Below the pieces are notes generated by a model. It had not been told where the DNA came from and searched no databases. It worked only from the letters and a program-made list of their open reading frames with translations. Of a DNA stretch of 64,000 bases, positions 3,009 to 60,336 are shown in pieces (the first letter of the stretch is position 1; every line of letters starts with the position of its first letter). The DNA lies in NCBI GenBank assembly GCA_021413905.1, contig JAIOPO010000005.1:81271-145270 (forward strand). Direction: 5' to 3'. Source of the stretch: Candidatus Nomurabacteria bacterium (GTDB lineage: Bacteria > Patescibacteriota > Minisyncoccia > Phycocordibacterales > UBA9973). The position numbers and the translations under genes were made by a program.

Positions 3009-3096
3009 ATGTAATAATTATACCATTTGAGAATTTAGATTCAAAGGAATATATAAAAAATATTATTGAAAATATTTTTTATAACACTAAGGTTTG

Positions 3097-3170
3097 TCCA
3101 CCCTCTTGGATTCGAACCAAGGACCCCAGAGGTATAAGCTCTGTGCTCTAACCAACTGAGCTAAGGGTGG
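3097..3170 (-). tRNA. tRNA with anticodon UAU (AUA-decoding tRNA-Ile type).
   Basis: Folds as a 74-nt cloverleaf on the minus strand: acceptor CCACCCT/AGGGTGG, U8, D-arm GCTC-AGTTGGTTA-GAGC with G18G19, anticodon arm CAGAG-CTTATAC-CTCTG (U33, anticodon TAT), T-arm CTTGG-TTCGAAT-CCAAG, discriminator A. No CCA is encoded. Confidence 0.7.
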
Positions 3171-5620: not shown

Positions 5621-6014
5621 TTTGTGGAACTGACGAGAATTGAACTCGTGTGCAGAAGGTTTTTGCAAAGAAGTCTACATATTTAGCGCATTTTTTTGTT
5701 TAAATTTTAAAATTCTTAAATGAACAAAATATTTTAAAATCGAGTTCTAAATTTTAGTGAAATATGCGAACAAATATTTCCTTATCCCGATAATATTATA
5801 CCCATTCTCATATATCGGAAGTCTATGAGATGGACACCAGTTTGGCTTACGCGAAAGCTGGAGCGAAAGCAAAATCATTCATACCGAAGTATGGTGATGC
5901 TTTCACTTTAGAAGCTAATTTTGCAATTAACATTTGAACTAAGTTTTACGAGATTACGTTCATTCTCGATATGCATCAATAGCAAAAGGCCCACTGTCTA
6001 TGCCTTGCAGTCCC
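5621..6014 (-). ncRNA. ssrA: tmRNA (ssrA, transfer-messenger RNA).
   Basis: The 5' GGGACUG pairs with the 3' CAGUUCC, giving the G3:U70 tRNA-Ala identity pair. The 3' T-arm is ACGAG-TTCAATT-CTCGT followed by a 7-nt acceptor strand and discriminator A. An internal tag reading frame ends ...GMNDFAFAPAFA-UAA. It lies immediately downstream of and co-oriented with smpB. Confidence 0.75.
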
Positions 6015-24206: not shown

Positions 24207-24788
24207 CTAAACATGACGATTTAAAAATTCATTTCTCATACCTGCAAATGCAACCGCAGCAGAAAAAATCTGACAAATAGCTATAAAAGGTGACCCTGTT
24301 TCAATCATCAAATAAGTTACTAATAAATGAGTAAATAAGTAACTAATCCAACCAATAATATTAACGGTCTTTTTATTAAGAGCCAAAAAAATAGTTCCGA
24401 CAAGTCCACCTAAGACAGAAAAAAATTGAATTAAAACTAAATTCTCATTTATTGCTTGAATTAAAAAGAAAATACAAACAACTGTAGTAATAGTAAAAAT
24501 AACAATTTTAAAAATAAGATTCCATTTTTTTAAAACTTTATTTAAATTATGTTTTTTTACAGAACTTGAAACTAAATATCCGTAAATCATAATAAAAATT
24601 AAAGCTACATCATATACCACCATAATCCATAGATTACCCCTATCTTCTAACACCATTTGAAGATAAAAATATATCGTAATTGTTATGGTTCCTAAAATTC
24701 CAAGACTCCAACCAATCGTCTTCTTTTTAAAAACAAAATATTTGTTCAATAAAAGAAGCAATGCGGAAATAATTTGCAATGCTAGCAT
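24207..24788 (-). CDS. Polytopic membrane protein (about 6 TM) inserted between rplE and rpsZ.
   Basis: 193 aa, strongly hydrophobic; no ribosomal function expected at this position. Confidence 0.55.
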   Translation of the reverse strand: MLALQIISALLLLLNKYFVFKKKTIGWSLGILGTITITIYFYLQMVLEDRGNLWIMVVYDVALIFIMIYGYLVSSSVKKHNLNKVLKKWNLIFKIVIFTITTVVCIFFLIQAINENLVLIQFFSVLGGLVGTIFLALNKKTVNIIGWISYLFTHLLVTYLMIETGSPFIAICQIFSAAVAFAGMRNEFLNRHV

Positions 24789-24809
24789 TCTTTCAACTTT
24801 TTAATTTTA

Positions 24810-24900
24810 CCTACTCTTTAGTTTTTCGGCGAACACTAGTCGGGTTTCAATGAACCTTATCTGTGTATATGATAGCATATTGTTAATAAAAAGTCAAATA
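24810..24900 (-). repeat. Copy A of a ~90-bp repeated promoter-plus-leader element (family P1: TTGACT-N17-TGC-TATCAT on the minus strand, -35/-10 at 24869-24897).
   Basis: About 93% identical to 33183-33270. Both lie immediately upstream of a minus-strand gene start. Confidence 0.6.
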
Positions 24901-24944
24901 CAGCATAAAATCCCCTTTCGGGGATTTTATGGTAGAGTCAATTT

Positions 24945-31471: not shown

Positions 31472-32668
31472 CTATGCAAGAATTTTTGTAACAACCCCCG
31501 CGCCCACAGTCTTACCTCCTTCACGGATAGCAAATCTTTGTGATTCTTCCAATGCAACTGGTGTAACCAACTTAACTGTAAATGTAACTGTGTCTCCAGG
31601 CATAACCATTTCTTTTCCTTCTGCTAATGTAACTTCACCAGTTACGTCTGTAGTACGGATGTAGAATTGTGGTTTGTAACCTTTGAAGAAAGGAGTGTGT
31701 CTTCCACCTTCTTCTTTTTTCAAAATGTAAACTTCACAAGTAAAGTTATCATGAGGAGTAACTGTTCCTGGTTTTGCTAAAACTTGTCCACGAGTAATGT
31801 CTTCTTTTTTAAGACCTCGGAGCAAGATACCAGCGTTGTCGCCAGCCATACCTTCTTGTAAATTTTTGTTGAACATTTCAATACCTGTAACTGTTGATTT
31901 TTGAGTTGCACGAATACCGACTATTTCAATATCTTCACCAACTTTTACTATACCTCTTTCGATTTTTCCTGTTACAACTGTTCCACGTCCTTCGATAGAG
32001 AAGATGTCTTCTACTGGCATAAGGAAAGGTTTTGCTGTATCTCGTTCAGGAACCGGGATATATGTATCAAGAGCGTTTGCAAGTTCAAGAATTTTCTTTG
32101 CCCATTCATCATCTGCTGATGTAGCTTCAAGACCTTTCAAAGCTGATCCACGGATAACTGGAGCATTTGCACCATCGAAACCTTGCTTTGTAAGCAATTC
32201 ACGGATTTCTTCTTCAACCATGTCAATCATATCTTTATCATCAACCATGTCACACTTGTTCAAGAATACGATGATTCTTGGAACACCAACTTGTTTTGCA
32301 AGTAAAACGTGTTCACGTGTTTGTGGCATAGCTCCGTCTGTAGCAGCAACAACCAAGATAGCGCCGTCCATTTGAGCAGCACCTGTGATCATGTTTTTAA
32401 TGTAGTCAGCGTGTCCTGGAGCATCAATGTGCGCGTAGTGACGAGCAGCTGTTTCGTATTCATTGTGAGAAATGTTAATAGTGATTCCACGAGCTCTTTC
32501 TTCAGGAGCATTGTCGATTTGACTAACATCTTTCATTCTAACAGTGTTACCTGAAAGGTTAAGACAGTTCAAAATAGCTGCTGTTAAAGTAGTCTTTCCA
32601 TGGTCAACGTGACCGATTGTGCCCACGTTTACGTGTGGCTTGTCTCTTTTAAATTCTTCTGCTGCCAT
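31472..32668 (-). CDS. tuf: Elongation factor Tu.
   Basis: GTP-binding motifs [14 protein letters not shown] and NKCD. Confidence 0.95.
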
Positions 32669-33159: not shown

Positions 33160-33182
33160 AATCGAAATTACTTTTTAAATTG

Positions 33183-33270
33183 CCTACTCGTTAGTTTTTC
33201 GGCAAACACTAGTCAAGTTTCAATGAACCTTATCTGTGTATATGATAGCATATTGTTAATAAAAAGTCAA
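33183..33270 (-). repeat. Copy B of the P1 promoter-plus-leader repeat (-35/-10 at 33242-33270).
   Basis: About 93% identical to 24810-24900. Confidence 0.6.
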
Positions 33271-33321
33271 GCATAAAAATGACTTTATTACAAAATACCT
33301 TATTAAATATAGCTTTTCCCT

Positions 33322-33712: not shown

Positions 33713-34873
33713 TTAATTTGCAGATGTATTATTTTTTTCCTCTTCTTCTTTTATCATATGATTTATTTTTTCTAATCCATATTTAAATTTTCTATTCAAT
33801 TCTTGATCTTTAGACATATCTCCATAATCATATAAATACCAATCTGTTAAATAAGGGTCTTTTTTTTCACCACTAAGCATATTTGTGGCTGAAAAAGGAT
33901 CGGAATAAACATAAACATATCCCCTATTTGCAGACTCCTCGTAAGCTTTTTTGAATTTTTTTAGAATTTCTAATCTTTCTAATGGATTAGATTTACTATC
34001 ATCAAAGAAAAACATTTGCATATCCTCACCATCTATAAATTCTTCAAAAATAGAACCTTTTGCCCCATCAAAAACAGCTCCATAATATTCTGGAATACCA
34101 TGCAATCCTTGCAAATCAGTTAGTGCTTTAGACTGTGTATATGTCGTATCCATTACAAAATATTCTTTATTATTTTTTTCATCAAAAATCTTATATCTAA
34201 AAAAATTACCCGGTTCTTCGGTTTCATCAGGTGGCATATCTGAAATTTTAAATCTGGAAGATATAAGATTACCTGCTATGCCTATTTTTTCAACAATGTA
34301 TTTTTCTTTATTGGTATTTATTTCTTTTACTTTAAGTCTAAAAATAATACCGGAAACTCCCTGAGAGAGTCTTTCTCTACCTCCTAGAACTTCAAGACCT
34401 TTTTCTAAAAGGTGTTTTTTGACTTTCTCAAAATCAGTATAATTTTCCAAGTAAAAATTTGAATCTTTTTCTTTTGAAGAAAAAGATGGTTTTTCATTAC
34501 CGAATAAATATTTTACAGCAATTTCCGCATCTTTATGATTTGTATCTGCTGAATCCAAGATTTGAACTTTAAATTCTTCGCCATTTTCTAATTTTACATT
34601 TTTCTCCTCAAAATAAGTATTATTAAATTCTTTTTCTAATGAAATTAATTTATCTTTGACAAAATAAAGAGACGGCAGATCTTGATAATCGATCTCTAAA
34701 TCTAACCTAGTTCTAATTTTATTATAATCTTCTAATGTTTTTGAAATTTTCAATTTCAAAGTGTTTATTTCTATTTTTAAATTTTCTTTATTTTTTATAT
34801 TAGAAAAAACTGCTTGAATATTCTGTTCTTTAACACTAGTATTTTCTTTTGTTTTTAATATTTCTTCTTTCAT
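33713..34873 (-). CDS. Hypothetical protein, 386 aa (K/E-rich coiled-coil-like N-half, globular C-half).
   Basis: No confident family. Located between fusA and trxA. Confidence 0.4.
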   Translation of the reverse strand: MKEEILKTKENTSVKEQNIQAVFSNIKNKENLKIEINTLKLKISKTLEDYNKIRTRLDLEIDYQDLPSLYFVKDKLISLEKEFNNTYFEEKNVKLENGEEFKVQILDSADTNHKDAEIAVKYLFGNEKPSFSSKEKDSNFYLENYTDFEKVKKHLLEKGLEVLGGRERLSQGVSGIIFRLKVKEINTNKEKYIVEKIGIAGNLISSRFKISDMPPDETEEPGNFFRYKIFDEKNNKEYFVMDTTYTQSKALTDLQGLHGIPEYYGAVFDGAKGSIFEEFIDGEDMQMFFFDDSKSNPLERLEILKKFKKAYEESANRGYVYVYSDPFSATNMLSGEKKDPYLTDWYLYDYGDMSKDQELNRKFKYGLEKINHMIKEEEEKNNTSAN

Positions 34874-46503: not shown

Positions 46504-49266
46504 CTAATTTGTTAAAGAATTAATTAATTTTCTTGTAGCAGGACCAAAAATACCATCAGCCTTTAAATTCAAATGTGATTTCTGAAATTGGATCAAAGCA
46601 TTTTTAGTAGCATTCCCAAATTTATTGGTTTCAAAACCTTTAGAACCAACACCTCTTAAAGAAACAGGAAAACCATTTTTATTCAAAAATTCTTGTAATT
46701 TCTTCACATCAAGAGAGGTGTTTCCAAACTTTAAATTATTTTTAAATTTAAAGTTATTATTTGAACTTAAATTTACACAATTATTCAAAGAGCAATCATT
46801 GTTGTTGATAAGATTATTTTGATTTTGATTTAAATTATTCAACAATAAAGCAACACCAGATGGTCTACTGTGCACAACAAAAGGAGTCATTGTTAACATA
46901 TTACTTTGATTACCAAAAGAATCCGTAACACGCACGAAACAATTATGTACACCGACAGGTAAATAGTTTAAAGTAATATGATTAACACCAGAAGAAACAG
47001 AAGTTGTACCAGAAGAACAATCACCATAAAAAACAACACTGCCAGATTCAGAAGAATTTAAATCATAAACAGGAGTACTGTTTGTTGAATTTTGAATTGC
47101 TGATATTTCATTTATTACAGGTGCTTCTGTGTCCACTTCATAATTAGAAGAATCAGTAGAAGCAGAAGGTGCATTACCTGTACTTGTATACCAAGAAGTA
47201 CCGACAGTGATAACATTTGAAAGATCAGCAACAGAAGAATCTGGTGTAAATAATGCCGTATAAATTGTAGGATCAGAAGTTACAGTAAAATCAGAAATTG
47301 AACCATTGGATACGGAAACATCAGCTGAAGTAAAAGCAGTGGGTGTCTCAGAAAAAGTAAATGTAATTGTCGCAGTATCACTTGATTTAAAAGTGTACCG
47401 ACTGAGTGAAATCACAACACTCGGTATAGTTTGATTTACGGTTAATGTATTAGCACTCACTGTTCCAGTTCTTGAATTCACAGCTATATCTGTCAGAACT
47501 GCTTTAAAATTAAAAATATCACTATTTGCAAAATCAGTAATTGCTTCAAAATCTGAAGCAGAGATAGACATTGTTTTTGTTCCAGCTACAACATCTCCAC
47601 TCAAAATAGTATACGCACTTCCAAGATTAGCATATGCACCACTATTTCTACTTGCTTGTATTTGAATTGTTCCACCAATCAAAGAATCATCATTAGAGTT
47701 TAAAGGAACAATAATATTTAAACTAGTATTAGTAGAATTCCAATAATCTGCAACAACGTTTCCACCCACAGATGTCACTGCCCCAGTAGTGAATGCAATC
47801 GGCAAAGTAACGTCAGTACCTGCTGATCCTAATAATAAAGTAGTAGTACCGGCTCCTTGATTTGAAACAGCGATATCTATAATCCCATCATTATTAAAAT
47901 CTGCAGTATTTAATGAAATAGGAGTAGACCCTACAGCGATATCTATTTTAGCACCGAAAGTTCCGTCTCCAACTCCAATTAAAAAAGAAATTGTATTTGC
48001 AGTTTGGTTTGAAACAATCAAATCCTGTTTTCCATCTCTATTTAAATCTACAACGGAAATAAAAACACCAGCATTAGTGCCGACATTATAATTCACAGCG
48101 GTAGCAAAGCTACCAAGACCATCACCAATTAAAACAGAAAGATTGCTTGTGGTTTGATTTGAGGAAACCAAATCAACTTTTCCATCATTATTAAAATCAC
48201 CATAACTCAAACCAATAGGAGCAGTACCAACACTATAATTCACAGCGGTAGCAAAGCTACCAAGACCATCACCAATTAAAACAGAAACGGAATTTGAAGT
48301 TTGGTTTGAAACAGCAATATCAAGATGACCATCACCGTTCAAATCAGTTGAAACAACTCCAGTAGGAGCAGAACCCACAGTAAATGATACAGGGTTAGCA
48401 AAAGTACCAGTACCTGAACCAAAAATAACAGTCGCACTCGTACCTGCTACTGTAGTGGAAACAACCAAATCAATATTACCGTCTTCATTGAAATCACCAG
48501 AAGACATATAACGAGATGTTTTACCAACAGAATAAGTAGAATTAGTACCAAAACTTCCAGCTCCATCACCCAGCAAAACAGAAATACTATTTCCATTATC
48601 ACTTGTAGCAGCTATGTCTAATTTTCCATCTTTGTTAAAATCAGCAACCACCATTCCTCTTGGACGTGAGGCTACTGTGTAATTCGTAGCGGTACCCATA
48701 TTCCCTGTTCCATCGCCGAGAAAAACAGAAATATTTGCAGATGTTTGATTTGAAACAGCCATATCCATATTTCCATCTTGATTGAAATCAGCAGTGACCA
48801 CAAATCTATTACTAGTACCTACAGTATAAGGTGAATGCGATTCAGCAGAAGCTGTATAGTCAAAAAAATGACAACCGCTTGTGGTAAAATTTTGAACAGT
48901 AGAAGCATTGCCTACTCCTGCACTATTCACAGCAAAAGCTTTATAGTAATAAGTAGTATTACATTTCAAAGAAGCACTTGGAAATGTATAAGAAAAAGAA
49001 CCAGTATTAAAAGAACCACTTTTTACAACTTGAAAATTTAAATTATTAGAAGCAGTACCATAATTAAAACCGACAGACAATGCATTCTCTCCACCAGTAT
49101 CACTAATATTTCCCAACAAAACAGCTGAAGTCGCCCCTACTGTAACCAAAGGTGAAGTAGTACTGACTGTTGGAGCAGAAATTGCAAATGCTGAATTTGT
49201 TAAAAATCCAAAGAATATAAAAATTATATATAAAAAAACGCCGTATTTTGTATTATATGTTCGCAT
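46504..49266 (-). CDS. Large exported protein: N-terminal FN3-like region, seven FG-GAP/VCBS-type repeats (beta-propeller) and a C-terminal peptidoglycan-binding (PG_binding_1-like) domain.
   Basis: Signal peptide. Repeats of the form DFN.DG..D.....N.....SV..G.G.G.F occur seven times. The C-terminal segment carries the PG_binding_1-like motifs KKLQEFLNKNGF...DGIFGPATRKLI. Confidence 0.7.
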   Translation of the reverse strand: MRTYNTKYGVFLYIIFIFFGFLTNSAFAISAPTVSTTSPLVTVGATSAVLLGNISDTGGENALSVGFNYGTASNNLNFQVVKSGSFNTGSFSYTFPSASLKCNTTYYYKAFAVNSAGVGNASTVQNFTTSGCHFFDYTASAESHSPYTVGTSNRFVVTADFNQDGNMDMAVSNQTSANISVFLGDGTGNMGTATNYTVASRPRGMVVADFNKDGKLDIAATSDNGNSISVLLGDGAGSFGTNSTYSVGKTSRYMSSGDFNEDGNIDLVVSTTVAGTSATVIFGSGTGTFANPVSFTVGSAPTGVVSTDLNGDGHLDIAVSNQTSNSVSVLIGDGLGSFATAVNYSVGTAPIGLSYGDFNNDGKVDLVSSNQTTSNLSVLIGDGLGSFATAVNYNVGTNAGVFISVVDLNRDGKQDLIVSNQTANTISFLIGVGDGTFGAKIDIAVGSTPISLNTADFNNDGIIDIAVSNQGAGTTTLLLGSAGTDVTLPIAFTTGAVTSVGGNVVADYWNSTNTSLNIIVPLNSNDDSLIGGTIQIQASRNSGAYANLGSAYTILSGDVVAGTKTMSISASDFEAITDFANSDIFNFKAVLTDIAVNSRTGTVSANTLTVNQTIPSVVISLSRYTFKSSDTATITFTFSETPTAFTSADVSVSNGSISDFTVTSDPTIYTALFTPDSSVADLSNVITVGTSWYTSTGNAPSASTDSSNYEVDTEAPVINEISAIQNSTNSTPVYDLNSSESGSVVFYGDCSSGTTSVSSGVNHITLNYLPVGVHNCFVRVTDSFGNQSNMLTMTPFVVHSRPSGVALLLNNLNQNQNNLINNNDCSLNNCVNLSSNNNFKFKNNLKFGNTSLDVKKLQEFLNKNGFPVSLRGVGSKGFETNKFGNATKNALIQFQKSHLNLKADGIFGPATRKLINSLTN

Positions 49267-53412: not shown

Positions 53413-54309
53413 TTAATTACCGAGCAAAGCTTTTATTCTCTCTTCCACAGGTGGATGTGTGCTAAATAAATTTGAGACTTTTTGACCTAAGCTACCTTTA
53501 TTACCAAAAGGATTCGCTATAAAAAGATGCGCTGTGGCTGTGTTTGCGTGAGCCATCGGTCTGGAATATTTTGATATTTTCTGCAAAGCATTCGCCAGCC
53601 CTTCCGGATAACGGGTGAGCAATGCCCCCGATGCGTCTGCTAGGAATTCTCTTTTTCTGGAAATCGCGAGCTGGATAAGAGTTGCAAAAATCGGCGCTAA
53701 AATCGAAAGCACAATACCGATGAGCATCATCAGTCCATTATTATTTTCATTATCTCTATTTCTACCACCTCCGAAAAACATAGAACGCAAAAACATATCG
53801 GCAATTATAGAAATAAAGCCAACTAAAACCACCACGACAGTCGAAAGTAAAATATCTCTGTTGCCTATGTGTGAAAGCTCGTGAGCTATCACACCTTCCA
53901 TTTCGCTCTTGTCTAAAATCTGCAATATTCCCGTCGTCACTGCCACCACTGCATGATTTTTATCTCTGCCTGTGGCAAAAGCATTCGGCGCAGGGTCTTC
54001 TATAATATAAAGTTTCGGCATTGGAAGTCCCGCAGTAATTGCAAGATTTTCAACAATATTCCACAGCTCCGGATTTTGCTCTTTTTTGATTTGCTTCGCG
54101 CGGTTTAAACTCAAAGCTATTTTATCCGAATACCAATAACTCGCTATGTTCATCACTATGCTGAAAATAACAAAGAAATACAGAATATTCGGATTCCTAT
54201 AATATTGCGAAAAGAAAAAACCAATCGCAATAACAATCACAAAAAACATGCTCATCAAGAGCCAAGTCTTTGTCACATTTTTTGATTGCTCTGTATAAAG
54301 TGTTGCCAT
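53413..54309 (-). CDS. htpX: HtpX-type M48 zinc metalloprotease.
   Basis: HELSHIGNRD HExxH motif plus four TM segments. Confidence 0.85.
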   Translation of the reverse strand: MATLYTEQSKNVTKTWLLMSMFFVIVIAIGFFFSQYYRNPNILYFFVIFSIVMNIASYWYSDKIALSLNRAKQIKKEQNPELWNIVENLAITAGLPMPKLYIIEDPAPNAFATGRDKNHAVVAVTTGILQILDKSEMEGVIAHELSHIGNRDILLSTVVVVLVGFISIIADMFLRSMFFGGGRNRDNENNNGLMMLIGIVLSILAPIFATLIQLAISRKREFLADASGALLTRYPEGLANALQKISKYSRPMAHANTATAHLFIANPFGNKGSLGQKVSNLFSTHPPVEERIKALLGN

Positions 54310-54313
54310 ATTT

Positions 54314-54517
54314 TTATTCTATTTCTGCATCCCTTAAAATATTCTTTACAATTTTAGGATGAAGAATTTTTGAACTGTGTTTTGGAATAGTAATTCGCAC
54401 GCCTTTGCCATTGTGAAAAATCATATGACTTCCACTCTGGCGAGACAAGGAAAATCCAATAGACTTTATTATTTTTATAATTTGGCCAGCAGTATACCTG
54501 AGAGTTTTTGGAGACAT
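54314..54517 (-). CDS. hicA: HicA-family mRNA interferase toxin.
   Basis: 67 aa containing GSHMIFH..G (HicA GSHh.h motif) with dsRBD-like fold features. Confidence 0.75.
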   Translation of the reverse strand: MSPKTLRYTAGQIIKIIKSIGFSLSRQSGSHMIFHNGKGVRITIPKHSSKILHPKIVKNILRDAEIE

Positions 54518-54520
54518 ATT

Positions 54521-54751
54521 TTAAGCCACTGCAACTTGAAAATTAGAAAATGTAAAAAATCTTTCAGAAAGTTTTAGTTTTTCTTTTTTTGCAACCCTGT
54601 CTGCAATATGAAGCTTTATGGCATCTTTGATATTTTTTACAACATCTTCATAAGTTTTGCCTTGTGTATAGCATCCCTGCAAATCTAAACATTCGGCAAC
54701 AAAGCCGTCTTTATCTTGTTCTATAACGACAGAAAAGTTTTGTATCTTCAT
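54521..54751 (-). CDS. hicB: HicB-family antitoxin (UPF0150).
   Basis: 76 aa with FSVVIEQDKDGFVAECLDLQGCYTQGKTYEDVVKNIKDAI; 3-bp spacing to hicA. Confidence 0.7.
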   Translation of the reverse strand: MKIQNFSVVIEQDKDGFVAECLDLQGCYTQGKTYEDVVKNIKDAIKLHIADRVAKKEKLKLSERFFTFSNFQVAVA

Positions 54752-54819
54752 ATTTTTATTTTAACACACCATATGCCAAAACCGCAACTATTCTAAATTG
54801 AAGTGCTTTTATAGTCAAA

Positions 54820-55794
54820 CTAACGATAAAAAGGATTAAAATGCTCTGCTAAATTACGAAAGCACAAAAACTCTAGATAAAAATTTTCATACAACTCTGT
54901 ATTTTTTGAAAAACTTTTAAAAGGATTAATAACTTTAAACATAGATTTATCTTTACTATTATTTATATTATTAATATAATATTTTACAAAAATAGAACTT
55001 TTAGTAAAATAAAAATCATATCTTCTTTGATTGTTAAAAAATTTAATAAATTCCATAAGTAGTTCCATTGTATGTGGATTTAATAATTCCCTTACTTCAA
55101 TTTGATCTTTGCAATACACATCAAACATTTTCTCGAAATCATTACTTTCCAAGAAAACTGCTTCTTTCTTGTATCCAAGTAAAGCAAAATCCTCAAATCC
55201 TGGAACAAGCGCTACTTTTTTTGATTTTACTAATACATCATTTTTCATTTTAAATTTATCAGATAAATATTTTATCTCTGTTATATAAGAATGTGAAGTG
55301 ATTTTTGTTCTGCTACTATTATTCGAAACTGCTATTTCATACCCTTCAATAAAAACATCACAAATTTCTTTATTGAACATATTTTGTGTTTCATACTTTA
55401 TATGACTTTGAATACAATCGATACCATCATGAGGATTAACCAAACACCTATTATCTAAATAATCTGGAGAGTCGCTTGGTATAAACTCATAGAAAAGCTT
55501 TTTATCAATCAACTTAGCCAAAATAGGTATAACATCATTGCGTGGGTCAATACTCTGAATGTCATAAATGGCTACTAAGACAGGCAAAATAAATGCATAC
55601 GTAATAAGGTTATAAACATCTGACGTATCTTTACTTTTAAAGATAAAGTAATCCAGAATAAGTAGAGTAAGAGAAAATAAGCTACCAGCAAAAAATCCAA
55701 GAAATAAAAGACGTTTTCGTTTATTATCAGATTTAATTAAAAGACTTTTAACATCAGAGCGAGATAGAAAAGTTTTTATAAATTCTTTATTCAT
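54820..55794 (-). CDS. Hypothetical membrane protein with two N-terminal TM helices (possibly DUF3137-like).
   Basis: 324 aa with TM pair at residues ~28-50 and ~62-80 followed by a soluble domain. The family assignment is from memory and uncertain. Confidence 0.4.
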   Translation of the reverse strand: MNKEFIKTFLSRSDVKSLLIKSDNKRKRLLFLGFFAGSLFSLTLLILDYFIFKSKDTSDVYNLITYAFILPVLVAIYDIQSIDPRNDVIPILAKLIDKKLFYEFIPSDSPDYLDNRCLVNPHDGIDCIQSHIKYETQNMFNKEICDVFIEGYEIAVSNNSSRTKITSHSYITEIKYLSDKFKMKNDVLVKSKKVALVPGFEDFALLGYKKEAVFLESNDFEKMFDVYCKDQIEVRELLNPHTMELLMEFIKFFNNQRRYDFYFTKSSIFVKYYINNINNSKDKSMFKVINPFKSFSKNTELYENFYLEFLCFRNLAEHFNPFYR

Positions 55795-55822
55795 TTGATG
55801 AACTAAATTAAATAATATATAA

Positions 55823-56320
55823 CTATTCTATCACAATTGGAATTAAAATAGATTTGTCATTTTCGGGCAAACCTGAAGCATTGTCATTGTGGATTTCAAA
55901 ATATGATGGACCCTTTGGGAGAGTGGAGAAATCAATATTGCCTTCAAATTCCACCGGTTCTGCAGTCATCCATTCAGTCTTTGCCACGGCATTGCTTGAT
56001 TTTAATACTTTTTTATTTGCGTCCAAAATATTTATCAAGATATTTCCTTCAAAAAAATATCCGCCTTTAATGCTTCCTCTGTATGAAAGAATGCCATGCA
56101 CTTTTGTATTCGGAAAAACAGAAAAAGAAATTAAATCATCTTTATTCCCCTGCAATAAATCTTTTGGATATGTTTCAATATTATTTACTTTTGTATTTTC
56201 ATTTACCGGAGCTTTGACTTCCATTTTAAAAATGAAAAAACCAAGAATAATTATTACAACAATTATTAATATAATCGAAACTTTTTTTGCCATAAATTTA
56301 AATATTATAATTGTATCCAT
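55823..56320 (-). CDS. Small exported hypothetical protein (N-terminal TM or signal anchor).
   Basis: Hydrophobic N-terminus KKVSIILIIVVIIILGFFIF. The start is more likely the second Met. Confidence 0.45.
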   Translation of the reverse strand: MDTIIIFKFMAKKVSIILIIVVIIILGFFIFKMEVKAPVNENTKVNNIETYPKDLLQGNKDDLISFSVFPNTKVHGILSYRGSIKGGYFFEGNILINILDANKKVLKSSNAVAKTEWMTAEPVEFEGNIDFSTLPKGPSYFEIHNDNASGLPENDKSILIPIVIE

Positions 56321-56828
56321 ATGGACCTGTTGCTTTCAAAATAACAGAAGCATCTTTAGAGTAAGTTTTTTTAATCAAAACACCAAACTGACAAGTATTT
56401 TTACTATTTTCATCATTAACAAAAACACTACCTTTACATAATTCTCCTTTTAAATAAACACCACCATGTGAATCTTTTACATCAAAAGTCTGTATTTCAT
56501 AACCAGCCATTGGTACTACTGGTAAACAAAGCTCTGTGTTGCAAACCTCATCTACGCCTATTAACTTAAAAGTTGAACCAGAACCATATGCATCATTTAC
56601 GACAACTTTCTCTCCTAATTTAATATTAAATTCTTCATTTAAGTCTACAGTTCTTGTTTGTGAACTCAATGGAGGTAATTTGAGAATATCTTTTATGTTT
56701 GTTTCTTTTTTAACTTCTTTATTATCAGCATCTTTAAATGAAACAGACTTCACAGAAAAAATCACACACAAATAGACTAAGGCTAACGCTATGATAATTA
56801 GTAATGTTGTTATTATTTTCTTTTGCAT
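56298..56828 (-). CDS. Exported hypothetical protein, tandem paralog 1 (4 Cys in the C-terminal half).
   Basis: Shares an almost identical N-terminal ~45 aa with the 56845 gene and diverges afterwards. Confidence 0.6.
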   Translation of the reverse strand: MQKKIITTLLIIIALALVYLCVIFSVKSVSFKDADNKEVKKETNIKDILKLPPLSSQTRTVDLNEEFNIKLGEKVVVNDAYGSGSTFKLIGVDEVCNTELCLPVVPMAGYEIQTFDVKDSHGGVYLKGELCKGSVFVNDENSKNTCQFGVLIKKTYSKDASVILKATGPYGYNYNI

Positions 56829-56844
56829 AAATTTAAATTAAATA

Positions 56845-57369
56845 CTAATCAGTCCAACCATCAATTTTTCCTAAAACAATATTGGCGTATGTTTGATAAT
56901 CAGTTTCTTTTACTAAAACGCTAAATGGCGTATGGTATGAATCATATTTATATGGATCATTTTTATAAAGTGCTCCACGTTGAATACTGCCATCTGGATT
57001 TTTTACATCATTGGTTTGTATTTCATATAAAACTTTTTGAGGAAATGGCATTGCTATACAATTAGAATTAATAGGACAACCATTGCCACCTAGGTCAAAT
57101 CCAACAACTTTAAAAGTTGCTCCACTATATGAGTCATTAGCAATTATGACTTTCTCCCCCAATTTAATATTAAATTCTTCATTTAATTTTACAGTTTTTG
57201 TTTTTGAATCTAACATAGGTTTAATAATATCTTTTAAGCTTGTTTCTTTTTTAACTTCTTTATTATCAGCATCTTTAAATGAAACAGACTTCACAGAAAA
57301 AATCACACACAAATAGACTAAGGCTAACACTATGATAATTAGTAATGTTGTTATTATTTTCTTTTGCAT
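56845..57369 (-). CDS. Exported hypothetical protein, tandem paralog 2.
   Basis: The N-terminal 45 aa are nearly identical to paralog 1. The 5' ~135 nt are ~99% identical (56695-56830 vs 57228-57369). Confidence 0.6.
   Translation of the reverse strand: MQKKIITTLLIIIVLALVYLCVIFSVKSVSFKDADNKEVKKETSLKDIIKPMLDSKTKTVKLNEEFNIKLGEKVIIANDSYSGATFKVVGFDLGGNGCPINSNCIAMPFPQKVLYEIQTNDVKNPDGSIQRGALYKNDPYKYDSYHTPFSVLVKETDYQTYANIVLGKIDGWTD
57228..57369 (-). repeat. Near-identical ~135-bp direct repeat covering the 5' ends of the two tandem paralogs (second copy at 56695-56830).
   Basis: Read directly from the sequence; 1-2 mismatches. Confidence 0.8.
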
Positions 57370-57390
57370 AAAATTTATTTATTAATTAAT

Positions 57391-57942
57391 CTAGAATTTC
57401 ACTTCCACAGGATTTTGCGCGACGTCGTTGTCAGCCAAATCAAAGAATTCCATTTTGGAGAAAGAAAACATTCCGGCAATCATATTACTAGGGAAAACTT
57501 CTATTTTTGTATTCAAGTCGCGGACATTTGCATTATAAAATCTGCGTGCGGCTTGGATTTTATTTTCAGTATCAGAAAGTTCACTTTGCAAAGCCAAGAA
57601 ATTTGTATTTGCTTTCAAATCTGGGTACGCTTCAGAAATAGCAAAGACTGATTTTAATGCTCCCGTGAGCATATTTTCTGCTTGCGCATGAGCAGGATTT
57701 GGACCACCGGAAGACATGGCTTTAGCTCTGGCATCACTGACTTTCTCAAATGCAGTGGATTCATGTGTAGCATAACCTTTCACTGTATTTACTAAATTCG
57801 GTATCAAATCATAACGGCGTTTTAGCTGAACTTCAATATCCGCCCAAGCTTCTTTCGCTCTATTTCGCAATGAAACAAGACCATTAAAAGCGAAAACAAC
57901 CCATAAAACTATAATACCCAATATAATCAAAAAGTACATCAT
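57391..57942 (-). CDS. lemA: LemA-family protein.
   Basis: N-terminal TM, then the LemA core (NGLVSLRNRAKEAWADIEVQLKRRYDLIPNLV...). Confidence 0.8.
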   Translation of the reverse strand: MMYFLIILGIIVLWVVFAFNGLVSLRNRAKEAWADIEVQLKRRYDLIPNLVNTVKGYATHESTAFEKVSDARAKAMSSGGPNPAHAQAENMLTGALKSVFAISEAYPDLKANTNFLALQSELSDTENKIQAARRFYNANVRDLNTKIEVFPSNMIAGMFSFSKMEFFDLADNDVAQNPVEVKF

Positions 57943-57964
57943 ATAATATATTTATTAGTGATAA

Positions 57965-58008
57965 AAGTTAAGAAATACTTAACTTATATATTGTAACATA
58001 TTGTAACA
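57965..58008 (-). promoter_or_regulatory. Candidate operator upstream of lemA: a perfect 10-bp tandem direct repeat (tattgtaaca x2, 57989-58008) next to the palindrome aagttaag-aaatac-cttaactt (57965-57985).
   Basis: Seen directly in the sequence between the secF stop and the lemA start. Confidence 0.35.
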
Positions 58009-58015
58009 CAAAAAA

Positions 58016-58915
58016 CTATTTTTTATTAGATTTCTTTTGCAATTCTTCCACCCATACGAGCAAAGGTGATGCTAGGAATATTGAAGAATATGTTCCAAAG
58101 AACATTCCAGCTGTGAGCATAAGTGCAAAATATTTTGTAGACACCGGTCCAAAGAAATACAAAGAAAGTAAAACAAGAATAACTGTCATAGAAGTGTTAA
58201 TGGAACGCACATATGACTGACTCAAACTATTCCCGACAGTATGATCAAATTCCACTGCTCTGTTTTTCAAATTCTCTCTGATACGGTCAAAAATAACAAT
58301 AGTATCTGAAACAGAAAGACCAAGGATTGTAAGTATTGCGACAACAAACAAAGTATCTACTTCTGCTCCGTAATAATGAGAAAGAAAAGCAAACAAACCA
58401 ACAGGTATTAATACGTCATGAAGCAATGTAACAACAGCGATGATACCATATCTCCAAGAGGACACAGGCTTTGAAACTTTTCTAAATGCAAAAGCAATAA
58501 AACATATTATAGCGAGAGCGACCAATACAATAGCGATGATTGCTTTCTTTGTAAGTTCATGACCAACTGATGGACCTATAGAATTAAAATTAGTCTCTTG
58601 CAAAGGATATTTTCCACCTTCAGATAAAGTGCTCAAAACTAAAAGATGTTCTGTATCTCCTAAATCACGAGTTTTTATTATATAACCCATATCACCTGTA
58701 GGCTGTATTAAGACTGAACCAAGATTTAAAGATTGAAAAGAAGTATCAAGATCTGCTTGCAATGGACGAGCATTAGTATAAACAACTTCAGTCAATGCTC
58801 CCCCCTTAAAATCAATACCGATCTTAAGACCGAATACAGACAAGGAAAGAACAGATAAAATAACCAATACTATTGATATACTAATAAATATTTTTTTGTT
58901 TTTTATTATGAACAT
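58016..58915 (-). CDS. secF: Protein translocase subunit SecF.
   Basis: SecF 6-TM sequence following secD. Confidence 0.85.
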   Translation of the reverse strand: MFIIKNKKIFISISIVLVILSVLSLSVFGLKIGIDFKGGALTEVVYTNARPLQADLDTSFQSLNLGSVLIQPTGDMGYIIKTRDLGDTEHLLVLSTLSEGGKYPLQETNFNSIGPSVGHELTKKAIIAIVLVALAIICFIAFAFRKVSKPVSSWRYGIIAVVTLLHDVLIPVGLFAFLSHYYGAEVDTLFVVAILTILGLSVSDTIVIFDRIRENLKNRAVEFDHTVGNSLSQSYVRSINTSMTVILVLLSLYFFGPVSTKYFALMLTAGMFFGTYSSIFLASPLLVWVEELQKKSNKK

Positions 58916-58920
58916 ATATT

Positions 58921-60336
58921 TTATTTACTTAAACCTGAGCTGAATAAAAATCTCGCCACTTTATTTTCACCCAAGAAATCTATAACTGTTAAGAATATCC
59001 TAGTTATTGTGATAGCGGAAAGCATTGAAACCAAAACACCCATCCCTAAAGTCAAAGCGAAACCTTTGATGAGTGATGTACCAAACCAGAAAAGGATAAC
59101 AGCTGTTATGATACTGGAAATATTTGAATCACGAATTGAAAACCATGCGCGTGCATAACCCGCTGAAATAGAATTCGCAATACTTCTGCCTCCACGTAGT
59201 TCTTCTTTTACTCTTTCGAAAATCAAAACATTAGCATCAACAGCAATACCCATAGATATTATAAATCCAGCAATACCGGCAGCTGTCAAAGTCACAGGCA
59301 ATAATTTAAACAAAGCTAAAATTATAGATACATATATAGATAGAGATATAACAGCTACCAAACCAGGGAGTCTGTACCAAAGAATAAGAAACAATGCTAT
59401 AAGCAAGAAACCATAGATAGTCGCTTTCACACCCGCATGAACTGCATTAGTTCCGAGACTTGCGCCGATAGTTTGTTTTGAAAGAAGTGAAATAGGCACA
59501 GGCAATGCTCCGGAATTCAATCTGCCTACAAGTTGTTTAGCTTCTGTAGGTGTAAATGAACCAGAGATAACGGCTTGACCATTTGGTATTTCTTCACGAA
59601 CAACAGGAGTGGAAATAGCTGAACCATCCAAATAAATAGCCACCATCTTGCCGACATTTTCTTTTGTTATTTTTGCAAATAAAGCAGTACCAGTGTCATC
59701 AAATTGGAGTGATACTTTTGGTTCACGAGTATTTTGATCAAATTCTAAAGTTGCATTTTTTAAATATCTACCAGTAAGTTCTGTATTTACAAATTGAGAA
59801 TTGATATCTAAATTCAATTTTCCATCTTTGCCTACAGTCACTTGTTTTGGAGCGTCTTTAGGAGCTTCAATTTTAAATTCCAAAAGTGGAGTCTGCCCTA
59901 TCATTTGTGTCGCTTTTTCAACATCAGTAACACCAGGCAAATCAATAAGAAGCTTTTCTTCTCCATTAGAAACTATCCCCCCGTCTTCTATTTGAACTAC
60001 GGGTTCAGAAACACCAAAAAGATTAACTCTTCTTTCTATAACATCACGCAATGCAGACATAGAGTCACTAATTTGTCCTGCTGGGACAGCTGAAACATCT
60101 GCTTTATATACCAAATGAGTTCCTCCGGACAAATCCAAACCTAAACGAAATGGATGATGCTTAAAAAATGACTTTTGAGATTCAAAATTATGATTCAAAG
60201 TCGGTTCAGTCTTATAAACAAAACACGCTACAGCAACGCCTAGTAAAATAATTATTAAAGCTAAAATTCTTTTTTTCCACATAATATAAGTATATTCTAT
60301 ACACTTTAATCTAAAAAAGCAAATACGGATAATCAT
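58921..60336 (-). CDS. secD: Protein translocase subunit SecD.
   Basis: SecD periplasmic and TM domains. The start is probably the internal MWKKRILAL (about 60282). Confidence 0.85.
   Translation of the reverse strand: MIIRICFFRLKCIEYTYIMWKKRILALIIILLGVAVACFVYKTEPTLNHNFESQKSFFKHHPFRLGLDLSGGTHLVYKADVSAVPAGQISDSMSALRDVIERRVNLFGVSEPVVQIEDGGIVSNGEEKLLIDLPGVTDVEKATQMIGQTPLLEFKIEAPKDAPKQVTVGKDGKLNLDINSQFVNTELTGRYLKNATLEFDQNTREPKVSLQFDDTGTALFAKITKENVGKMVAIYLDGSAISTPVVREEIPNGQAVISGSFTPTEAKQLVGRLNSGALPVPISLLSKQTIGASLGTNAVHAGVKATIYGFLLIALFLILWYRLPGLVAVISLSIYVSIILALFKLLPVTLTAAGIAGFIISMGIAVDANVLIFERVKEELRGGRSIANSISAGYARAWFSIRDSNISSIITAVILFWFGTSLIKGFALTLGMGVLVSMLSAITITRIFLTVIDFLGENKVARFLFSSGLSK

Follow-up and report, generated by a model that had tools for sequence, protein, structure and literature searches.

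Two adjacent genes in a Candidatus Nomurabacteria MAG begin with almost the same DNA and end very differently. They lie in a 64-kb stretch of a 214-kb contig (the whole stretch analysed here is called the window), and they raise the question of how a tandem pair of paralogs can agree at every silent site of one segment and approach saturation in another. The original prediction offered two answers, namely gene conversion, or a cassette-like exchange of C-terminal modules behind a fixed secretion leader.

Organization of the locus

The two genes, referred to as A and B, are found in the order secD-secF-lemA-B-A, followed by gene C, a DUF3137 gene, hicAB and htpX (Table 1), with htpX set apart from the pair by gene C, DUF3137 and hicAB. 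Gene C, which starts 4 nt past the stop codon of gene A and has an N-terminal anchor of its own, showed no similarity to gene A on comparison, and is unrelated to both A and B. A scan of the run from lemA to DUF3137 showed no terminator-like sites, and promoter-like matches were present in numbers at the level of chance; the lemA-B-A-C-DUF3137 run looks to be co-transcribed. The window has 33% G+C and carries ribosomal-protein genes, EF-Tu, SecDF and tmRNA, indicating that it is part of an ordinary Patescibacteria chromosome. Mirrored ORFs are present on the plus strand at 56536-56775 and 57083-57316, and the repeat itself accounts for both.

Gene A matches K8Q94_03040, an NCBI entry from a Candidatus Nomurabacteria MAG, at 100%. 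Gene B corresponds to K8Q94_03045, which was deposited only from an internal GTG codon (codon 26) and thus lacks the hydrophobic N-terminus. Word-indexed protein searches placed A and B on one contig only among public data.

Table 1. Features of the A/B locus and its surroundings, in the order in which they are read.
Feature	Position in window	Strand	Description
secD	58921-60336	minus	ORF; upstream part of conserved neighbourhood
secF	58016-58915	minus	ORF; upstream part of conserved neighbourhood
lemA (PF04011)	57391-57942	minus	Pfam E=2.9e-58; neighbour upstream of gene B
Spacer, lemA stop to B start	57370-57390	minus	21 nt, A+T-only
Gene B	56845-57369	minus	174 aa ORF; family-typical copy
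Near-identical tract, B copy	57240-57369	minus	CDS nt 1-130
Intermediate block, B copy	57149-57239	minus	CDS nt 131-221
Spacer, B stop to A start	56829-56844	minus	16 nt, A+T-only
Gene A	56298-56828	minus	176 aa ORF; more diverged copy
Near-identical tract, A copy	56699-56828	minus	CDS nt 1-130, codons 1-43: MQKK, TM segment, SVKSVSFKDADNKEVKKET
Intermediate block, A copy	56605-56698	minus	CDS nt 131-224; rest of linker and first domain strands (TV.LNEEFNIKLGEKV)
Gene C, Gmad2-like Ig fold	55823-56293	minus	Pfam PF10648 E=6e-6
DUF3137 gene	54820-55794	minus	Pfam E=2e-12; closes tightly spaced run
htpX (M48 peptidase)	53413-54309	minus	usual downstream neighbour of X family

Identity between the paralogs falls in steps

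We compared A and B in a codon-based alignment, which a maximum-likelihood fit divided at nt 130 and nt 224 into three segments. The log-likelihood of the fit rose from -302.0 with no change point to -249.6 with one and -237.8 with two. Over CDS nt 1-130 there was a single mismatch in 130 (99% identity), and third positions were identical in all 43 codons. Nucleotides 131-224 showed 16 mismatches in 91 (82% identity), with 24 of 30 third positions (80%) shared, and from nt 225 to the end mismatches rose to 131 of 274 (52% identity), with 45 of 92 third positions (49%) in agreement, where chance would give 0.40 in view of the A+T-rich composition. Third-position identity differed between the first and second segments (p=0.0035) and between the second and third (p=0.003). 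The sole difference within the tract, at CDS nt 41 (window 56788 and 57329), results in A14V, with no synonymous change. By the Nei-Gojobori method, dS rose from 0 in codons 1-43 to 0.56 in codons 44-77 and to 1.09 from codon 78 to the end, with a dN/dS of ∼0.6 in this last block. Synonymous differences numbered 0 over 27.7 sites in codons 1-43 and 39.6 over 75 sites downstream (Fisher p=1e-7), and silent sites are near saturation across the 3' 55% of A and B.

The boundary at nt 130/131 was sharp, with 1 mismatch in 130 on one side and 147 in 365 on the other (max-chi2 permutation, p<0.0005). Probes of 40 and 57 nt from the tract occurred at exactly two places in the window and in none of 100 shuffles. 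At the rate of divergence seen downstream, a stretch of 129 nt would carry no more than one mismatch with a probability of ∼1e-27. The near-identical 5' ends of the original prediction were therefore confirmed, with narrower limits: identity had been taken through codon 45 and ends at codon 43, the limit of 57228 being ∼12 nt too generous, and the ribosome-binding region, also thought to belong to the repeat, lies outside it. The tract begins at the ATG, and the A+T-only spacers that precede it differ in length (16 and 21 nt) and have no clear homology between the copies; the 16-nt spacer between B and A contains no Shine-Dalgarno-like motif. A breakpoint had been expected from nucleotide alignment, and a gradual decay of identity had been named as the mark of an ordinary old duplication. 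The sharp first step agrees with the former, but it is followed by an intermediate 82% block, and gradual decay is half borne out.

The C-termini, earlier described as unrelated, proved to be alignable. BLASTP aligned the two proteins over residues 1-164/166 with 55% identity (E=2e-44), the C-terminal part being 34% identical and only the last 6-10 residues unalignable, and A and B are homologous from end to end.

A and B belong to a small family of predicted envelope proteins

We searched 1.84 billion representatives exhaustively with a profile, A and B being the query sequences, and obtained twelve matches at E<=0.001. These were B (E=2e-82), A (1e-80) and ten remote relatives (2e-15 to 4e-5), eight of which are proteins of 145-250 aa (one of 527 aa) with the same layout as A and B. 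We refer to this group as X; its members outside the window are P0003-P0006, P0008-P0011 and the X proteins of loci L001 and L002. A scan of GTDB genomes with a four-sequence alignment identified two loci. Word-indexed searches of 5.8 billion clustered proteins with A and B as queries returned only A and B themselves, a ten-sequence profile search, dominated by the long P0003, gave no further relatives, and scans of JGI metagenomes for MQKKIIT/FKDADNK and for X family motifs found none. Neither A nor B had a match in NCBIfam or in a profile search of PDB sequences (best E=0.51). Pfam gave only sub-threshold chance matches for the two, and none for the ten family members. X is a small unnamed family specific to a clade of Patescibacteria.

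The X layout opens with a short basic N-terminus and a hydrophobic stretch of ∼20 residues; then come a linker that is very variable in length and sequence, and a domain of ∼110 aa with the motifs EFxIKxGEKV, ADSYGATFxLTxFYxHPCPxxxxCIWSG, FYEIQxPxVKNxDGSIQ and PFxVxVKDSDYKTYAKIVL. Columns F66, C98, C104, Y115, I117, Y158 and A162 are invariant. Across other genomes the anchor and linker form the least conserved region of the family. The hydrophobic segment occupies residues 5-23 in both A and B (Kyte-Doolittle mean ∼3.1). Gene B departs little from the family consensus (206 bits with the family HMM), its signal anchor and linker being followed by an all-beta ectodomain of ∼110 aa with Cys98 and Cys104. 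Gene A scores 166 bits; it keeps the family cysteines (C96, C101) and has two more (C131, C146), but its PCP and SDYxTYA motifs are gone. From the length of the hydrophobic segment and the presence of the cysteine pair, X is predicted to be a type II signal-anchored protein whose domain is extracytoplasmic and disulfide-bonded. Its role in the envelope is likewise putative.

We modelled the ectodomain of B with AlphaFold2. A ten-sequence alignment gave an eight-stranded all-beta model (pLDDT 78.7, pTM 0.72), and a two-sequence alignment a poor one (pLDDT 56). Foldseek searches with E<=0.001 as the threshold found nothing significant in BFVD or in the PDB. Domain I of class II fusion proteins (flavivirus E, Gc, EFF-1, Fsx1) was considered as a candidate relative and rejected: identity was 6-15%, the best Foldseek E-value was 0.18 and TM scores were 0.38-0.42. 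Unlike those proteins, X has an ectodomain predicted to be a single small domain, with neither domains II and III nor a fusion loop. We treat the likeness as a generic resemblance between beta sandwiches and not as membership, and the predicted fold as an unclassified beta sandwich.

X is single-copy elsewhere and evolves rapidly

We counted copies by running the family HMM over six-frame ORFs of all loci. Each of the nine other loci has a single X, always in the same neighbourhood, SecD-SecF-LemA-(Gmad2-like)-X-HtpX, and two copies were present only in the window. The HMM also matched the Gmad2-like neighbours weakly (16-22 bits), most likely on account of a shared hydrophobic N-terminus.

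The order is SecF, a 343-aa ORF, LemA, Gmad2-like, X and HtpX in L001 (Nomurabacteria), and SecD, SecF, LemA, Gmad2-like, X and HtpX in L003 and L004 (Pacebacteria). L009 has SecD, SecF, a minus-strand ORF, LemA, a 162-aa ORF, X and HtpX, and L010 has SecD, SecF, LemA, X and HtpX. We found LemA, X and HtpX in L006, LemA and X in L005, X and HtpX in L007 and L008, and SecD, SecF, LemA, two genes and X on a JGI contig. In L001, L003, L005, L006, L009 and L010, LemA thus precedes X by one or two genes, and on the JGI contig by three. SecD and SecF in these loci are Pfam annotations. The window departs from its relatives in that X precedes the Gmad2-like gene, and in the insertion of DUF3137 and hicAB before htpX; the DUF3137 gene had no tblastn match in any related locus.

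Neighbouring genes are well conserved. Orthologues of gene C in L001, L003 and L004 are 76-78% identical, SecF of the window is 75% identical to that of L001, and HtpX is 65-69% identical to the HtpX directly following X in L001, L003, L006, L007, L009 and L010. X itself is only 31-32% identical between the window and L001, where LemA, SecF, Gmad2 and HtpX reach 65-78%, and 31-46% identical between genomes that share 65-78% identity in the genes around it. X thus evolves much faster than its neighbours. Over the C-terminal part, B is 27-41% identical to the X of other genomes, and the 34% between A and B is no higher; inside the tract, other members are too diverged to be aligned with A and B. 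The two nevertheless group together in the C-terminal comparison, and share derived characters missing from all other members, namely a two-residue SG insertion before ATF/STF, IQTxDVK and VL[VI]K[EK]T.

Probable gene conversion at the 5' end

We consider it likely that an old tandem duplication, specific to this lineage, was followed by gene conversion between A and B anchored at their 5' ends. One ancestral X gene in a SecDF-LemA-X-HtpX envelope locus would have been duplicated in tandem, and the near-saturation of silent sites in the 3' part argues that this duplication is old. Homologous recombination between the copies, presumably dependent on RecA, would then have written the 5' end of one copy non-reciprocally onto the other, while the ectodomains kept diverging and A drifted furthest from the family consensus. 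The latest conversion would have covered CDS nt 1-130, its downstream limit set by mismatches and its upstream limit by the edge of the duplicated unit at the ATG, since different genes precede A and B. We infer conversion as the mechanism, and also its recency and its repetition, from the pattern of divergence in the two genes.

The grading of silent-site identity from 100% to 80% and 49% points to two or more events, differing in age and in length and each anchored at the 5' end. Conversion was probably repeated, with at least one recent event. An older or longer event, for which support is moderate, probably reached ∼nt 224: the lower dS of the intermediate block is significant by third-position counts (p=0.003) and not by Nei-Gojobori counts (p=0.2), and the block overlaps the family's conserved EFxIKxGEKV motif. 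The copies are adjacent, at 541 nt from start to start, and perfectly matching runs of 40 and 89 bases within the tract would be the only good recombination substrate left, so that further conversion would be confined to the 5' end. A point against conversion is the lack of homology upstream of the ATG, which leaves a two-sided event with little or no flank there.

Ordinary divergence under purifying selection is excluded by the identity of silent sites in codons 1-43 and their near-saturation further on, by a leader that falls in the region of lowest conservation in the family, and by bodies of A and B that at 34% identity are no more alike than B and the X of other genomes, and yet share derived characters and cluster together. 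Selection on the protein cannot explain the identity of the leader, because no region of X varies more than anchor and linker. Unequal crossing-over alone was also rejected, as it would predict a chimera with the 3' end of B as its upstream flank, or shared 3' ends, and could not yield shared 5' ends behind different upstream flanks. The proposal of gene conversion in the original prediction is thus supported by the silent-site contrast, the sharp boundary at nt 130/131 and the low conservation of the leader in the family.

Alternative explanations

A recent duplication of the whole gene, after which the 3' part of one copy was replaced by recombination with a divergent allele from some other strain or relative, is an unlikely alternative, and comes closest to a realistic version of the cassette-like exchange. 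X evolves fast, so highly divergent alleles exist to be imported; the first breakpoint is sharp, and in the C-terminal part the similarity between A and B is no greater than that between B and the X of other genomes, both of which such an import would explain. It predicts, however, a silent-site profile of two steps where three were seen, and it does not sit well with the derived features that A and B share to the exclusion of other members, or with their clustering. Homology would be needed on the 3' side too, and no donor-like sequence was present in 1.84 billion representatives, 5.8 billion clusters, GTDB species genomes or JGI metagenomes.

We think it improbable that the pair is an assembly artefact, with two strain alleles of a single X stitched together in tandem, or a repeat collapsed or polished to a consensus. 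The source is a MAG, either protein is found on one public contig only, the nine related loci are all single-copy, and a 130-nt repeat is near a typical read or k-mer length. A tandem join would nevertheless require real sequence linking the 3' end of B and the spacer to the leader, and the B-to-A junction is unique sequence, its exact match to the A-to-C junction being limited to 13 nt (ATTTAAATTTATG), which is not long enough to lead an assembler astray. The difference inside the tract shows that the copies were not simply collapsed, and both ORFs are intact, with operon-like spacing.

Identity at every silent site, in two copies within one apparent operon, is also what selection on the nucleotide sequence of the 5' 130 nt would produce, whether on an RNA structure, a target of an sRNA or antisense RNA, or a translational control element. 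We give this little credence, as shuffled controls fold more stably than either leader (z = +1.8 and +1.05 for the leaders), Rfam gave no match to them even at E<=1, and the sequence just upstream of the ATG, the usual site of such elements, is not conserved.

Finally, programmed variation of the C-terminal domain, through cassettes of the pilE/pilS or vlsE type, a diversity-generating retroelement or an invertase shufflon, would yield just such an arrangement, in which the leader is constant and the extracytoplasmic body variable, but is scarcely credible here with no more than two copies, each a full-length gene with a start, no truncated cassettes in the 64-kb window, bodies that are 52% identical at the DNA level with indels, unlike near-identical template and variable repeats, and inverted repeats that are weak only (20-27 nt, 70-80% complementary).

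The related idea of a cassette-like exchange of C-terminal modules, the second answer of the original prediction, was not supported. Both C-terminal parts are the same homologous domain, and the breakpoint falls inside the linker, away from the domain border. Searches of the window by tblastn and self-blastn revealed no further copies of A or B, no fragments and no promoterless cassettes, nor was there another repeat of their variable parts or a pair of flanking inverted repeats. Beyond A and B, no protein bearing the leader was present among 5.8 billion clustered proteins, and JGI metagenome contigs encoded none.

Implications

If gene conversion is accepted, the A/B locus would be a clear case of segmental concerted evolution in a genome of the Patescibacteria (candidate phyla radiation), in which one quarter of two adjacent genes is kept identical by recombination and the remainder has diverged to saturation. 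The process is already known, and no new mechanism needs to be invoked. The novelty is modest, and comes from the uncharacterised, LemA/HtpX-linked X family and from a revised start for gene B, which we place 25 codons upstream of the deposited one so as to include the membrane anchor. X would be a previously unnamed, fast-evolving family of envelope proteins tightly linked to LemA and HtpX, and may aid understanding of the poorly known LemA/HtpX membrane-stress module in Patescibacteria. In practical terms, a 130-nt direct repeat can cause assembly errors at the locus as well as deletions and amplifications, and such changes could arise here through repeats spaced 541 nt apart.

Comparison with known systems

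Neisseria pilE/pilS and Borrelia vlsE combine a constant leader with a variable surface part made by gene conversion. These systems have one expression site and many promoterless partial cassettes, and conserved segments flank the variable region on both sides. A and B resemble them in joining a constant N-terminal part to a variable one. They differ in being two complete, separately translatable genes, with no further copies in the window, and in a C-terminal divergence that is homologous but very old.

With the other X loci, A and B share the anchor, the variable linker, the beta domain of ∼110 aa, EFxIKxGEKV, two Cys residues and FYEIQ. The DYxTYAxIVL motif of the family is present in B, and several family motifs have been lost in A. 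In most loci, as in the window, X follows lemA at a distance of one or two genes.

The closest parallel is ectopic conversion between duplicate bacterial genes, as in Salmonella tufA/tufB (PMC5485169), RF1/RF2 (PMC4530459) and rRNA operons, where part of one paralogue is likewise homogenised non-reciprocally. In these systems, as in A and B, a stretch in which even silent sites are identical lies within otherwise diverged genes, and tracts stop at the bounds of homology. For tufA/tufB, conversion is established and its tracts are limited by those bounds (PMC5485169), and the ending of the A/B tract at the edge of the duplicated unit fits these experiments. The mechanism at A/B is deduced from one sequence. 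A and B are further distinguished from cases of the tufA/tufB type in that the paralogues are adjacent and saturated outside the tract, with only the 5' quarter still serving as a substrate for recombination.

Neighbourhood of the X family

The tandem paralogs A and B belong to an unnamed Patescibacteria family (X), for which we found only about 10 clusters among 1.84 billion representatives. The gene order SecD-SecF-LemA-(Gmad2-like)-X-HtpX was conserved in at least nine Patescibacteria contigs, including those carrying loci L001, L003 and L005-L010. X itself is much faster-evolving than its surroundings, with 31-46% identity as against 65-78% for the neighbouring genes. In the window, hicA, hicB and a DUF3137 gene (54314-55794, minus strand) separate the Gmad2-like gene from htpX. 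Since no counterpart of these three genes was observed at the same place in the related X loci, the block looks like a lineage-specific insertion.

Gene starts and overlapping reading frames

The deposited version of gene B (K8Q94_03045, 149 aa) is annotated from an internal GTG at codon 26, which leaves out the membrane anchor. Translation from the ATG at 57369 gives an N-terminus common to gene A and the X family layout. Two antisense ORFs have a common C-terminal sequence solely because both overlap the repeated leader, and nothing suggests that they are genes.

Coordinates of features in the window
Feature	Position	Strand	Remarks
tRNA-Ile gene	3096-3170	-	TAT anticodon, unmodified-looking
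tmRNA gene	5622-6014	-	tag peptide AKLASKVKASPYFGMNDFAFAPAFA
Intergenic repeat, one copy	24796-24910		upstream of PnuC-like NMN transporter gene (24207-24788)
Intergenic repeat, other copy	33170-33278		between EF-Tu gene (31472-32668) and ORF 33713-34873
SecD-SecF-LemA-(Gmad2-like)-X-HtpX neighbourhood	53413-60336
hicA	54314-54517	-
hicB	54521-54751	-
DUF3137 gene	54820-55794	-
Antisense ORF, 79 aa	56536-56775	+	mirrors 57083-57316
Antisense ORF, 77 aa	57083-57316	+	mirrors 56536-56775
Gene B N-terminal stretch missing from K8Q94_03045	57295-57369	-	ATG at 57369

Repeats in the window and in proteins matching the X profile

Two copies of an intergenic repeat (∼95-115 nt, 90% identical) were also seen, neither of which matched an Rfam family. 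On the minus strand they carry TTGACT-17 nt-TATCAT, which makes a strong sigma-70-like promoter, and a conserved leader comes after it. Separately, an ORF of 920 aa (46504-49266, minus strand) encodes FG-GAP repeats, a Big_12 Ig-like domain and, at the C-terminus, a peptidoglycan-binding domain; it contains internal DNA repeats (47857-48795) of ∼150 nt each that are 64-84% identical.

A profile search with X matched two large repeat proteins, P0007 (607 aa, E=2e-8) and P0012 (2136 aa, E=9e-4). In each, five stretches matched part of the profile, the best one spanning profile positions 74-143 for P0007 and 52-97 for P0012. Given these partial matches, the X domain may in part be related to a module that occurs as a repeat in larger proteins.
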